From positions 30,059 to 94,058 of the forward strand of contig CAVWIL010000010.1 in assembly GCA_963755045.1 (NCBI GenBank): DNA of 64,000 bases, in the 5' to 3' direction. The translations under genes were made by a program, and so were the position numbers. Below are positions 19,614 through 58,105 of the stretch, in pieces; position 1 is the stretch's first letter, and each line of letters begins with the position of its first letter. The notes beneath the pieces were generated by a model. The model had not been told where the DNA came from and did no database searches. It was given only the letters and a program-made list of their open reading frames with translations. The stretch is from Nitrospirota bacterium. GTDB taxonomy: Bacteria > Nitrospirota > UBA9217.

Positions 19614-19684
19614 AAGCACCAAATACTAAACATCAAATTACAACTGTTTGGTTATTGTAATTTGCGATTTATCATTTGAAATTT
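19614..19684. repeat. Heptamer-repeat palindromic junction element
   Basis: AAGCACC AAATACT AAACATC AAATTAC ... TTGTAAT TTGCGAT TTATCAT TTGAAAT, between the fumarase alpha and beta genes. Confidence 0.6.
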
Positions 19685-27231: not shown

Positions 27232-27320
27232 CAGGAGACAGGAGCCAGAATCCAGAAGCCAGGAAAATAGTTTGATCCGCTCTCCTTCTGGCTACTGGCT
27301 CCTGGCTCCTGACTTCTTAT
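27232..27320. repeat. Heptamer-repeat palindromic junction element
   Basis: CAGGAGA CAGGAGC CAGAATC CAGAAGC CAGGAAA ... TTCTGGC TACTGGC TCCTGGC TCCTGAC. The ispG stop lies inside one arm. Confidence 0.8.
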
Positions 27321-41825: not shown

Positions 41826-41916
41826 AACACGAATTGCACGAATGCTCCTAATGTCGCAAAGTAAAAACAATCTCCTCTTTTATAAGTGCAATTCGTCCAA
41901 TTCGTGTCATTCGTGC
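41826..41916. repeat. 9-mer CACGAAT/ATTCGTG palindromic junction element
   Basis: ACACGAATTGCACGAAT ... AATTCGTCCAATTCGTGTCATTCGTG. Confidence 0.65.
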
Positions 41917-44676: not shown

Positions 44677-44808
44677 CAAATTCCAAATCTCAAATCACAA
44701 ATCCCAAATAATAATCAAACTGAACAAATCTCAATTACCGAAACGTTTAATGTTTGATGCTTGGCGCTTGAAATCTATTTGGGATTTGGTGCTTGATATT
44801 TGGTGCTT
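44677..44808. repeat. Heptamer-repeat palindromic junction element
   Basis: CAAATTC CAAATCT CAAATCA CAAATCC CAAATAA ... ATTTGGG ATTTGGT GCTTGAT ATTTGGT. Confidence 0.8.
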
Positions 44809-45705: not shown

Positions 45706-47055
45706 CTACCGCTCCCTCGGAATCCCCCACTTCTTTCTCTTCTCCCAGAGCGATTTCCGGGTGATCCAGAGCATGTCCGCAAGCTGCTGTTCGTTGAACT
45801 GGCCCTGGTATTTCTGGATGAATGCCTTGGTGTATTCCTCGATGGAAAGCTTTTTATCAAAGACCTGCGTCTCGAACGATGACGCTGCCGCAAGCCCCAC
45901 GGGCAGGTGTTCGGGGGCAATGACGTTGCCGTCGGAGACAAGGATGGCGCGCTCGATCACGTTCTGGAGCTCACGGACGTTCCCCGCCCACTCGTAGTTC
46001 ATCATGAGTTCCAGGGACTCGGGAGCAATCTCCTTTATTGTTCTCCCCATCTCGTGTGAGTACTTTTCGAGATAGTGCTGTACGAGCGCTTTGATGTCTT
46101 CTTTCCGTTCCCGCAGCGGCGGGATCTGGAGCGAAATGACATTGATCCGGTAATAGAGGTCTTCGCGGAACGCGTTCTGCTTTACCGCGGCCTTCAGGTC
46201 CTTGTTCGTGGCCGTGATGAACCGGATGTCCACCTTGCTGCCCTTGGTGCTGCCCACGGGACGGATCACCTGGTCCTCGATGACCCGGAGCAGTTTGGCC
46301 TGGAGCGACATGCTCATGTCGCCGATCTCGTCGAGGAACACGGTGCCGCCCTCGGCTTCCTCGAGGATGCCTTTCTTGGTGGCGACCGCGCCGGTGAATG
46401 CGCCCCGCACGTGACCGAACAGCTCGGTCTCAAGCAGGTTCTCGGGGATCGCGGAGCAGTTGATCGGCACAAAGGGCATGTCGCGGCGGGAGCTGTTGTG
46501 GTGGATCACCCGCGCAAAGAGCTCCTTGCCCGTCCCGGTCTCGCCGAGCAGCAGGACGCTGCTCCTGGTGTCGGTGACCTTCCGGACCTCGTCGAGGATG
46601 GCCTTGAGCGCAGGGCTCTCGCCGATGATGCTGCTGAAATCGTAATCCTTCCCGATCTCGCGCTTGAGCAGCACGTTCTCGGCCTGGAGGCTCTTCTGCC
46701 GGAGGGCGTTCCGGACGACCTGCTTGATCTCCTCGTGGATGACCGGCTTCATGATGTAGTCGTACGCGCCGGCCCGGAGCGCCTTGATGGATGTGTCGAG
46801 CGACGCATAGGCGGTGACGACGATGATGATCTGGTCAGGGACCTGTTCCCGGACACGGGTGAGCATCTCGATCCCGTCCATGCCCGGCAGGATGATGTCC
46901 GTCAGGATGACGTCGTACATGCCGGTCTCGAGCAGGGCAAGGCCCTTTTCCGCCGACTCGGCGCCGTCCACCGTGTACCCTTCCTTGACAAAGATGCGCT
47001 TGATGGACTCCCGCAGCGTCTCTTCGTCCTCTACGATCAGAATGTTCTTGGACAT
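45706..47055 (-). CDS. Sigma-54-dependent response regulator (NtrC/AtoC family)
   Basis: Receiver domain (ILIVEDEE, TDIILP), GETGTGKE, ETELFGH.RGAFTGA, FLDEIG, REDLYYRIN and AGNVRELQN. Confidence 0.95.
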   Translation of the reverse strand: MSKNILIVEDEETLRESIKRIFVKEGYTVDGAESAEKGLALLETGMYDVILTDIILPGMDGIEMLTRVREQVPDQIIIVVTAYASLDTSIKALRAGAYDYIMKPVIHEEIKQVVRNALRQKSLQAENVLLKREIGKDYDFSSIIGESPALKAILDEVRKVTDTRSSVLLLGETGTGKELFARVIHHNSSRRDMPFVPINCSAIPENLLETELFGHVRGAFTGAVATKKGILEEAEGGTVFLDEIGDMSMSLQAKLLRVIEDQVIRPVGSTKGSKVDIRFITATNKDLKAAVKQNAFREDLYYRINVISLQIPPLRERKEDIKALVQHYLEKYSHEMGRTIKEIAPESLELMMNYEWAGNVRELQNVIERAILVSDGNVIAPEHLPVGLAAASSFETQVFDKKLSIEEYTKAFIQKYQGQFNEQQLADMLWITRKSLWEKRKKWGIPRER

Positions 47056-47077
47056 CGAAATCCTCTGTTTATCGTTA

Positions 47078-47355
47078 TCCGCAGATTACGCAGATTTCGC
47101 GGATTGTGAGAATGCAAAACCACGGTATTTAAGAGAAGCCGGTCCAAGGTTAAGCAGCACACCTGCAAAAGAACATGTTGATTTAGGATAATTAATTATT
47201 TGCGCTTCGTCAACTTTACCCAGCTTTGACAACGCCTTCAGTTCGACGATGACGGTCTCATGGCAAATGAAATCTGCCGTAAAACAATCTCATTGTTTTC
47301 TCGATTCAATGGTCCCATCCCAATTCCTCATCTGCGAATCTGCGTAATCTGCGGA
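47078..47355. mobile_element. Minimal element: GxxExxY remnant between 19-bp perfect inverted repeats
   Basis: TCCGCAGATTACGCAGATT (47078-47096) and AATCTGCGTAATCTGCGGA (47337-47355). Confidence 0.65.
47086..47283 (-). pseudogene. GxxExxY-family (PD-(D/E)XK-like) protein remnant, C-terminal half only
   Basis: Manual translation gives FTADFICHETVIVELKALSKLGKVDEAQIINYPKSTCSFAGVLLNLGPASLKY, matching the family pattern ADF...IVELKA...EAQ.INYLK...LLNFG. No N-terminal half or start codon. Missed by the ORF track. Confidence 0.8.
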
Positions 47356-47472
47356 CAAGGATTTACGCCTCCACCCGAATCTTGATGAAAAACCGCGTCC
47401 CCCTGTCCTTTTCGGATCAACCGTTGTAATTTCGTTGCATGCTTGAGCGGATGTGAGCGTTTGCACATCCAA

Positions 47473-47955
47473 CTACCTCCCGAACCTCTTCTTCAACTTC
47501 GCCACCACCACTCCCGGCACCAGGCTCGACACATCGCCGCCGTAGCTCGCGGCCTCCTTCACAATGGTCGAGGTAATAAAGGAATATTCTTCGCTCGGCA
47601 TCAAATACACTGTCTCAATAGTATTGTCAAGCCTGCGGTTCATGAGGGCCATCTGCAGTTCAAATTCAAAATCTGAAACCGCACGCAGCCCCCGGATAAT
47701 ACCGACTGCCTTCTTTTTATTGACATAATCAACGAGCAGGCCGTCAAACCCCTCGATCACGACGTTCTTATGCCTGCCAAACGCTTTTTTGAACAGGGTG
47801 ACTCGCTCTTCAAGAGAAAAAAGCGGCTCCTTCCTGGGGTTCTCCGCTACCGCCACGATAACCTTGTCGAATATTCTCAGGCTTCGTTCAACGAGGTCGA
47901 TGTGCCCGTTGGTGACAGGATCAAAGGTCCCGGGATAAACCGCAATATGTTTCAT
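47473..47955 (-). CDS. coaD: Phosphopantetheine adenylyltransferase
   Basis: YPGTFDPVTNGH, IRGLRAVSDFEFE and ITSTIVKE. Confidence 0.97.
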   Translation of the reverse strand: MKHIAVYPGTFDPVTNGHIDLVERSLRIFDKVIVAVAENPRKEPLFSLEERVTLFKKAFGRHKNVVIEGFDGLLVDYVNKKKAVGIIRGLRAVSDFEFELQMALMNRRLDNTIETVYLMPSEEYSFITSTIVKEAASYGGDVSSLVPGVVVAKLKKRFGR

Positions 47956-58011: not shown

Positions 58012-58105
58012 ACTCTCCCTCCCCTTCAAGGGGAGGGCCGGGGTGGGGATGGGTTAAAACCGGCGCTTGGACCCATCCCCCACCTAACCTCCCCCTTGAA
58101 GGGCG
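58012..58105. repeat. CCCTTCAAGGG-type long palindromic element
   Basis: CCCTTCAAGGGAGG..GGTGGGGATGGGT ... ACCCATCCCCCACC..CCTCCCCCTTGAAGGG, between dsrF and dsrT. Confidence 0.75.

Follow-up and report, generated by a model that had tools for sequence, protein, structure and literature searches.

A decayed GxxExxY nuclease cassette between phased inverted repeat arrays upstream of an NtrC-type regulator gene in a Nitrospirota bacterium

Small genes that are enclosed by short repeats of their own have been described in several bacterial systems. The closest to the one treated here is formed by the Ssn nucleases and their NTS repeats. Ssn proteins are GIY-YIG site-specific single-stranded DNA nucleases flanked by their own hairpin repeats, and both the cleavage and its effect on transformation have been proven (PMC11893778). 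Here we describe a comparable arrangement in a stretch of 64,000 nucleotides (the window) on contig C10 of the genome of a Nitrospirota bacterium (G000; 2.96 Mb, 25 contigs, 86% complete). Positions 47078–47355 of the window contain the remnant of a gene of the GxxExxY family between two inverted repeat arms. The complete form of this arrangement, a PD-(D/E)XK nuclease gene of about 125 codons between two inverted arrays of about three phased units of 8–10 nt, will be referred to as the GxxExxY cassette. The GxxExxY family (PF13366) is very large and is listed as being of unknown function in a survey of PD-(D/E)XK proteins (PMC3424549). A full-text literature search yielded no account of GxxExxY cassettes; the name is mentioned without treatment of the biology of the family.

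Like the GxxExxY cassette, the Ssn/NTS system comprises a small single-domain nuclease gene between repeats which also occur without the gene in many copies. In both cases repeat variants track nuclease variants, and the number of repeats varies strongly among related genomes. The fold of Ssn, however, is GIY-YIG and not PD-(D/E)XK, and the NTS is a self-contained hairpin of 20–50 nt, whereas in the cassette the units of an arm are repeated directly and the only pairing partner is the opposite arm. With the repetitive extragenic palindromic (REP) sequences and the REP-associated tyrosine transposases (RAYTs) the cassette shares a single-copy gene bracketed by inverted copies of the repeat presumably served by that gene, numerous gene-less palindromes at the junctions of genes, long vertical inheritance and several repeat–gene pairs per genome. 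A RAYT is, however, a Y1 HUH tyrosine transposase, while the gene flanked here belongs to PF13366 and has no HUH domain, and REPs are imperfect palindromes rather than phased arrays of units. Since fold and repeat structure differ, the cassette belongs to neither system, and its resemblance to Ssn/NTS is one of function only.

Other described arrangements share single traits with the cassette. The S23p intervening sequence (IVS) of Coxiella (PMC4990558) has a small open reading frame (ORF) between inverted repeats able to form a long stem, and it rides on host transcription; the four-helix-bundle family of the IVS ORFs also has a periodic-arm cassette in G000. The GxxExxY cassette differs from the 23S IVS in that it lies between protein genes and not in rRNA, its cargo is a nuclease and the variation of its arms argues against selected pairing. 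Heptamer arrays of Xanthomonas (GGGAATC) and Nostoc (PMC4692102) resemble the arms in their short tandem units, their convergent pairs and their location at co-directional gene junctions. These heptamers, however, form G-quadruplexes and are reported without cargo, whereas the arm units measure 8–10 nt, share the core CRCNRA and go with a single protein family. MITEs (miniature inverted-repeat transposable elements) and their parent insertion sequences also exist in gene-bearing and shorter gene-less forms with the same ends, the short forms arising by internal deletion, as is seen for the cassette at one orthologous site. Unlike these, the cassette has neither a transposase nor a short target duplication, and its ends are unlike between copies in one genome.

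The remnant and its intact relatives

The 19-mer TCCGCAGATTACGCAGATT is found at 47078–47096 on the plus strand and its exact reverse complement at 47337–47355, where 0.01 matches are expected by chance. When extended, the arms measure 26 nt each, are 92% complementary and are separated by 240 nt. Each arm is made of three 9-nt units with the core CGCAGAT. In gene orientation, i.e. on the minus strand, the 5′ arm (47330–47355) reads TCCGCAGAT TACGCAGAT T-CGCAGAT, and its outer 19 nt constitute the exact inverted repeat; this arm is also present at the orthologous place in the related genomes G080, G005 and G006. The 3′ arm (47078–47104, minus strand) is composed of the units ATCCGCGAA ATCTGCGTA ATCTGCGGA. 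The arms are not self-folding hairpins. No short target-site duplication was found beside the arms of the remnant cassette and no transposase within it; its sole ORF is the PD-(D/E)XK remnant, and no partner transposase was identified.

The remnant frame (47089–47289, minus strand; 67 codons) corresponds to the C-terminal half of a GxxExxY/PDDEXK_3 nuclease. Its translation, DCFTADFICHETVIVELKALSKLGKVDEAQIINYPKSTCSFAGVLLNLGPASLKYRGFAFSQSAKSA, begins with DCFTADFICHETVIVELKA and contains EAQIINY and LLNLG further on. It matches the GxxExxY profile TIGR04256 with an E-value of 2.2e-11 and 44.2 bits (cut-off 35) over profile positions 60–113 of 116, and PF13366 PDDEXK_3 with 9.3e-11 and 42.6 bits (cut-off 22). 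The GxxExxY motif itself is absent, as the motif columns (G26, E29 and Y32 of the protein encoded on C9) fall in the deleted part. The catalytic residues D, E-x-K, Q, Y and N are kept, and the invariant columns D68, E78 and K80 are occupied by the D of A-D-F and by E and K of V-E-L-K, respectively. At nearly invariant columns the remnant shows exchanges of L to P and F to L (NYLK to NYPK, NF to NL). There is no complete ORF: a TGA precedes the 67-codon frame, and the sole in-frame start is a TTG that would give 48 amino acids. The TAA stop of the remnant (47086–47088) sits within the 3′ arm, and intact orthologues likewise run into the arm and end at the same TAA.

The DNA of the remnant is colinear with the intact gene of G080; colinearity starts at the R-A-D-F codons, passes the stop and reaches the 3′ arm, and about 190 bp are missing. 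In the simplest reading, a single internal deletion took away the stretch between the start region and approximately codon 57; its edges are approximate. Between the 5′ arm and the remnant frame lies a leader-like stretch (47290–47329, minus strand) which ends in the TGA closing the upstream frame. When the 58 nt following the 5′ arm were compared with the coding region of intact relatives, nothing significant was obtained, and the best weak matches were the arm-proximal leaders of cognate cassettes. That this stretch is diverged coding sequence, which would shift the edge of the deletion, was rejected in the absence of a significant alignment. Judged from its sequence, the remnant is a pseudogene of the GxxExxY family and not a functional member. 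It can no longer make a protein, and anything that is still active is the pair of arms.

The structure of the intact paralogue encoded on C9 was modelled by AlphaFold2 using an alignment of 23 sequences (pLDDT 95.5), in which D, E-x-K, Q, Y and N are invariant. Foldseek matched the model to a restriction-endonuclease-like protein (3ijm), Cas4 SSO0001 and lambda exonuclease, and more weakly to an archaeal Holliday-junction resolvase, with TM-scores of 0.4–0.6. The predicted fold of the intact paralogue is restriction-endonuclease-like. A sequence search of the PDB with an intact orthologue gave no match, and the PADLOC defence models gave no meaningful match.

Three full-length GxxExxY genes are present in G000, each between its own inverted arrays. 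The arms consist of CACGGAT units with a period of 10 for the gene on C9, of CGCGGAG units with a period of 8 for the gene on C14 and of CGCAGAG units with a period of 9 for the gene on C7. Throughout the genus (nine genomes), an inverted-repeat score of at least 33 was reached by 22 of 30 GxxExxY loci but by none of 1500 random intervals of G000. Given this result and the 0.01 matches expected for the 19-mer, chance or artefact was rejected as the source of the inverted arms. The units have the common core C-R-C-N-R-A, and their orientation relative to the gene is constant in every cassette with recognisable arms. Neighbouring genes were co-directional with the cassette gene in 43 of 52 cases upstream and in 39 of 45 downstream; orientations were taken from longest-ORF calls, and part of this excess is ordinary operon bias. 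Stops, splits or partial loss have visibly damaged about nine of the approximately 38 loci of the genus, which indicates that decay is common.

Two of the intact cassettes of G000 showed further peculiarities. At C9:26876–27700, 5′ arm, leader and start codon are present in four tandem copies (unit about 95 bp) upstream of the intact CACGGAT-armed gene. In the CGCAGAG-armed gene (C7:46403–46790), the ATG (MTENDITGN) and the conserved frame (LLIAAIKIH...) seem to be separated by a frameshift; decay may have set in, or translation may begin at an internal TTG, and the upstream host gene ends within the 5′ arm. In G005, hairpin arrays were observed that represent local arm duplication.

These data bear on a sequence-only reading of the window made beforehand. 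It had described perfect 19-bp inverted repeats built of 9-mers around a remnant co-oriented with the operon, and both features were recovered as described. The assignment of the remnant to the C-terminal half of a GxxExxY protein stood, with profile scores above the cut-offs, but the length given, 65 codons, has to be corrected to 67. The check that it proposed, for flanking inverted repeats and co-directional placement at intact genes, turned out in its favour for the arms of all three genes of G000 and for the counts given above.

History of the kinase–regulator junction

Downstream of the cassette lies an NtrC-family sigma-54 response regulator gene (45706–47055, minus strand). The spacer between the 3′ arm and the start codon of this gene (47056–47077, minus strand) contains a ribosome-binding site and is conserved in the alignments of G000, G080, G005 and G006. 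The present upstream neighbour is coaD, encoding pantetheine-phosphate adenylyltransferase (47473–47955, minus strand; TIGR01510, 202 bits), so that coaD, remnant and regulator gene are all located on the same strand. Adjacency of coaD and the regulator gene was found only in G000, G002, G005 and G006. The norm in the bacterial family, across which the regulator orthologues are 76–95% identical, is a regulator gene that follows a histidine-kinase gene; in G080 the upstream gene encodes a HATPase_c kinase. The coaD gene of the congener G004 (C5:264415–264889) matches in two overlapping pieces (residues 1–91 and 85–158), suggesting a frameshift or an assembly error.

We compared the state of the junction at the kinase–regulator or coaD–regulator spacers of related genomes; many of these assemblies are fragmentary, and some of the relic arms were called by eye. 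An intact CGCAGAT-armed GxxExxY gene occupies the junction in G080 (g19), whose regulator is 83% identical to that of G000, and an intact gene is also present in G013 (g6). In G028 (g5) the gene is interrupted by an in-frame TAA. The congeners G003, G005 and G006 (g1) have both arms with loops of 75–80 nt and no gene, and G026 has the 3′ arm only. Short spacers without the element were found in the distant genomes G068, G066, G086 and G008. As shown by this comparison, the ancestral place of the cassette is the spacer between the histidine-kinase gene and the NtrC-type regulator gene. The junction is occupied by descent in at least four genera, and no presence/absence difference between close relatives was seen at this locus. 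The series of intact, stop-broken, half-deleted, arms-only and one-arm states shows that gene-less hairpins with these arms arise in place through loss of the gene.

Just upstream of the 5′ arm, a 56-nt segment (47363–47418, minus strand) translates as SEKDRGTRFFIKIRVEA followed by a stop; the kinase of G003 ends with DSEKDRGTRFTIKIPVEA and a stop. This segment is a histidine-kinase 3′ relic, consisting of the last 18 codons and the stop, and forms the left part of a duplicated block. Its position shows that kinase tail, cassette and regulator gene came to lie beside coaD by segmental duplication as one such block. The regulator locus is present three times in G000: in the window after coaD, and at C21:14541–15971 and C3:8192–9559 after a histidine-kinase gene. 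The DNA of the two kinase–regulator copies is 97.8% (C21) and 95% (C3) identical to the copy in the window, and in the copy on C21 the cassette is reduced to a 5′ arm in degenerate form plus some 50 nt from the 3′ end of the gene. As G005 also has two regulator copies, in an assembly of seven contigs, at least one duplication is real and not the result of strain mixture.

The remnant protein has its highest identities with same-locus copies (67% for G080, 62% for G013 and 61% for G028), while a copy of the same genus at another locus is 54% identical. In the tree the remnant forms a group (SH-aLRT 99) with the genus's two CGCAGAT-armed genes, and its branch has a length of 1.33 substitutions per site. 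The closeness to same-locus copies fits vertical descent together with the regulator gene. For the copy in the window, these data point to long vertical inheritance and not to movement, and we consider it very probable that the element is a decayed cassette with the history of duplication and decay outlined above. The sequence-only reading had seen the remnant as inserted between coaD and the NtrC gene; the kinase-tail relic contradicts this and indicates a block duplication instead. It had also regarded the element as caught in the middle of its decay, which is borne out by the intact, stop-broken and arms-only states of the orthologous junction.

The kinase–regulator spacer was highly variable in the 30 family genomes inspected (loci L121–L150). 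Its length ranges from 2 nt to several hundred nt, and its filling differs from genome to genome, including CGCAGAT arms, ACCGCTGAGAC arms, AAACCGTT arrays and GCAAAATG arrays. The spacer is a hot spot for the turnover of repeat elements.

Constraint on the arms and competing explanations

We propose that the arms serve as more than a stem, their units being recognised by the cognate nuclease. Several protomers would bind the units in phase, on double-stranded or hairpin DNA, and would nick or cut there. By such a partnership of a nuclease with its own repeats, as proven for Ssn/NTS and REP/RAYT, the cassette would be maintained, would recombine and would now and then reach a new site. Nicks or cuts made in the arms would be the basis of this maintenance, of the local duplications on C9 and in G005 and of the entry into new sites, and the arrays would outlive the gene. 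This mechanism, read from sequence comparisons, is tentative and falls somewhat short of an even chance.

Between G000 and G080 the arms are identical at 50 of 54 positions (93%), compared with 52% at the four-fold degenerate sites of the regulator gene and 65% in the coding DNA of the remnant. The difference between arms and silent sites indicates that the arms have been kept in a lineage in which the gene has long been dead. Mismatches between the two arms of a cassette were found at 14 of 336 positions (4%) of the core hexamer CRCNRA and at 23 of 105 spacer positions (22%; Fisher 2e-7). On the sense strand, G·U-compatible changes were not preferred (30 vs 25), and transversions made up 69 of 124 mismatches. 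The bias towards spacers, without a G·U bias, suggests that the repeated core is conserved and not base pairing as such. Such a constraint on the core over the spacers favours repeated protein-recognition units over a mere stem.

The same data bear on the likeliest alternative, an RNA cassette resembling an IVS. According to this explanation, the arms would pair in the operon transcript, RNase III would cut the stem as it does in 23S rRNA IVSs, the mRNA of the gene would be excised and the flanking cistrons would be insulated; the remnant would be a decayed passenger, and the host transcript would be the reason for keeping the stem. In favour of this, the predicted minimum-energy RNA fold pairs the arms across the remnant (−105 kcal/mol, z −3.7). 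A scan for terminators was negative between coaD and the regulator gene, and a promoter scan gave one weak promoter-like site within the remnant that was not above chance. The co-directional neighbours of the cassettes and the survival of the arms after gene loss also speak for it, and the four-helix-bundle gene of G000 that is related to '23S IVS proteins' has arms of the same kind, the Coxiella IVS being likewise ORF-bearing and stem-flanked (PMC4990558). On the other hand, a stem that is cut as RNA needs neither a periodicity of 9 nt nor a CRCNRA core common to paralogues, and it should not leave 22% of the spacer positions unpaired while the repeated core is conserved. An excess of G·U-compatible changes on the sense strand was not seen, most changes being transversions, and Rfam gave no match, rRNA included, at a permissive threshold between 46900 and 47600. 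We regard an IVS-like RNA cassette as unlikely.

Evidence for movement of arms and gene as a unit came from the sibling cassette on C14. This intact cassette with CGCGGAG arms (C14:18172–18628) has an empty orthologous site in G006 and G002. In G000 it is flanked by direct repeats of 137 bp (C14:18037–18765), where G006 and G002 have a single 137-bp copy. The 137-bp segment contains a promoter-like site and the 5′ untranslated region as well as, from the downstream gene for a 188-amino-acid protein, the opening five codons. The two copies are 89% identical to each other, and each is 92–95% identical to the single copy of the congeners; a staggered cut fits this divergence no better than a Campbell-type entry of DNA with a foreign homology arm. 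No short target duplication was seen beside any cassette, this sole filled/empty pair having the 137-bp duplication. The C14 protein is at most 55% identical to any protein of its own genus, but copies that are 94% (G020, g13), 92% (G067, partial), 87% (G073) and 78% (G021) identical were found, all at unrelated loci. For comparison, coaD is 81% identical between G000 and G020. The DNA similarity of G020 to C14 starts and stops exactly at TCACGCGGAG...CTCCGCGTGA, and in the other three genera it ends near the arms. High identity across genera, with a similarity bounded by the arms, indicates inter-genus transfer and integration as an arm-bounded unit. The suggestion of the sequence-only reading that the element is a minimal mobile element, with empty-site alleles and target duplications to be looked for, is not borne out at the remnant locus, which shows vertical descent and none of these signs, whereas the C14 sibling has spread across genera and has an empty site and flanking 137-bp repeats.

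Additionally, we placed the arm-unit type on a tree of 28 GxxExxY proteins. The label required 12 changes (minimum 11) compared with 20.9 in shuffles, and none of 200 shuffles was as low; orthologous near-copies add to this clustering. These findings can be confronted with a second alternative, in which the arms are generic intergenic hairpins, i.e. host-level repeats made by slippage or gene conversion and kept for mRNA stability, termination or nucleoid structure in the manner of REP/BIME elements or the GGGAATC arrays of Xanthomonas, and the gene is a passenger. Dozens of periodic-arm hairpins with unrelated units, most of them gene-less, are present in the genome, the kinase–regulator spacer holds different types of hairpins in different genomes, and arms are duplicated in tandem (the four copies on C9, the hairpin arrays of G005). 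Inverted heptamer arrays at co-directional gene junctions have also been published (PMC4692102). Generic hairpins, however, would hardly frame 22 of 30 GxxExxY genes when none of the 1500 random intervals is framed, nor would they move between genera jointly with the gene, with the similarity to the closest copy (G020) ending exactly at the arms. It is equally difficult to reconcile with a passenger gene that the arm unit tracks the protein clade and that the units face the same way with respect to the gene wherever arms are recognisable. An origin as generic hairpins is consequently improbable, more so than an IVS-like cassette.

At least 13 CGCAGAT sites were found in G000; four of them lie in the context of a MITE, and others stand alone with shared loops. 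This MITE-like repeat of about 190 bp has GTAACTAYTCAG ends and carries an approximately 80-nt CGCAGAT hairpin as an internal module. It is located at C7:211538, C15:116969, C16:6832 and C17:61005 in G000 and at L151–L170 in G013. The 16-mer CGCAGATTACGCAGAT (at most one mismatch) occurred in 0 to 301 copies in 61 family genomes, and the reversed control never occurred; in G013, which has approximately 300 copies, the MITE accounts for most of those sampled. The median was 17 copies in genomes with a gene of the cognate clade vs 1 in those without (Mann–Whitney 3e-5, genomes being treated without phylogenetic correction). The idea that the remnant is the cargo-bearing form of the empty palindromes at gene junctions is upheld by the decay series for hairpins with the same CGCAGAT arms but is not shown for all palindromes, most of those in the window being of 7-mer types with unrelated units.

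Several other gene-less hairpins are located in the window. The arms of the hairpin at 41827–41907 consist of CACGAAT units with a period of 9; since G073 and G036 have intact GxxExxY genes with units of this type on their flanks, the hairpin is probably an orphan arm pair. The junction hairpins at 27232–27317, 44683–44803, 19620–19678 and 58022–58103 have periodic arms of unrelated units (CAGGAGC/CAGAATC, CAAATC, CAAATAC and the G-rich GGGGAGGG type), and no link to GxxExxY was found for these four.

That the arms are ordinary terminal inverted repeats (TIRs) for a transposase encoded elsewhere, for instance the mover of the GTAACTAYTCAG-ended MITE, with the nuclease gene as cargo, might be suggested by the dispersal of approximately 80-nt CGCAGAT hairpins with near-identical loops as modules of the TIR-bounded MITE in G013 and G000 and by the discrete C14 unit with its empty-site allele, but it is very improbable, as the hairpin is internal and not terminal in the MITE, the 137-bp duplication of the filled site and the lack of short target duplications at the cassettes are unlike transposase products, and one transposase could not serve arms that differ between the cassettes of one genome.

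Standing of the recognition-unit mechanism and its implications

Several observations weigh against arms that are recognised and maintained by the nuclease, chiefly an unrelated gene with similar arms and arms that outlast their cognate gene. At C14:97195–97592, inverted arrays of AGCCAGG-type heptamers enclose a four-helix-bundle gene (TIGR02436, '23S rRNA IVS protein' family). As this gene has the same kind of arms in the same genome, the architecture needs no nuclease. The residence of the window copy at a single junction in four or more genera is not what an active selfish element would show, and the co-clustering of arms and protein clades is explicable by common descent alone. Arms also persist, still paired, where no cognate gene was found, namely in G000, in G006 (77 copies of the 16-mer) and in G062 (60 copies), which implies that their upkeep needs no gene in cis and perhaps none at all. 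The relation between gene and repeat number was discounted as evidence of a spread driven by the nuclease, because G006 and G062 lack the gene and most of the sampled copies in G013 are contained in the MITE.

Taking these points and the alternatives together, the best explanation overall blends the history of duplication and decay at the kinase–regulator junction with recognition of the phased units by the cognate nuclease. We give this combination, whose first part is much firmer than its second, a slight balance of probability. New in the present work are the orthologous decay series, the comparison with neutral rates, the test of core against spacers, the confounding MITE and one pair of filled and empty sites.

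In a wider and more speculative interpretation, GxxExxY nucleases with their phased-unit arms might form an equivalent of Ssn/NTS and RAYT/REP on a PD-(D/E)XK basis. Their arms, as arrays of cognate binding sites under selection, would survive the loss of the gene, become modules of MITEs and give rise to the 'tandem-oligomer hairpins' of operons in many phyla; a cassette of about 450 bp would spread between genera, and the junction studied here would be a dated series of its life cycle. Going by the sequence comparisons, we hold this to be possible but rather doubtful.

The remnant shows how some of the gene-less hairpin repeats of G000 originate from a nuclease-plus-repeat cassette that is very common. 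Our findings turn the function of GxxExxY into a direct question, namely whether the protein binds or cuts its own unit arrays. If this is true, a class of intergenic hairpin repeats would be explained, and a family of small, programmable, sequence-specific nucleases would become available.

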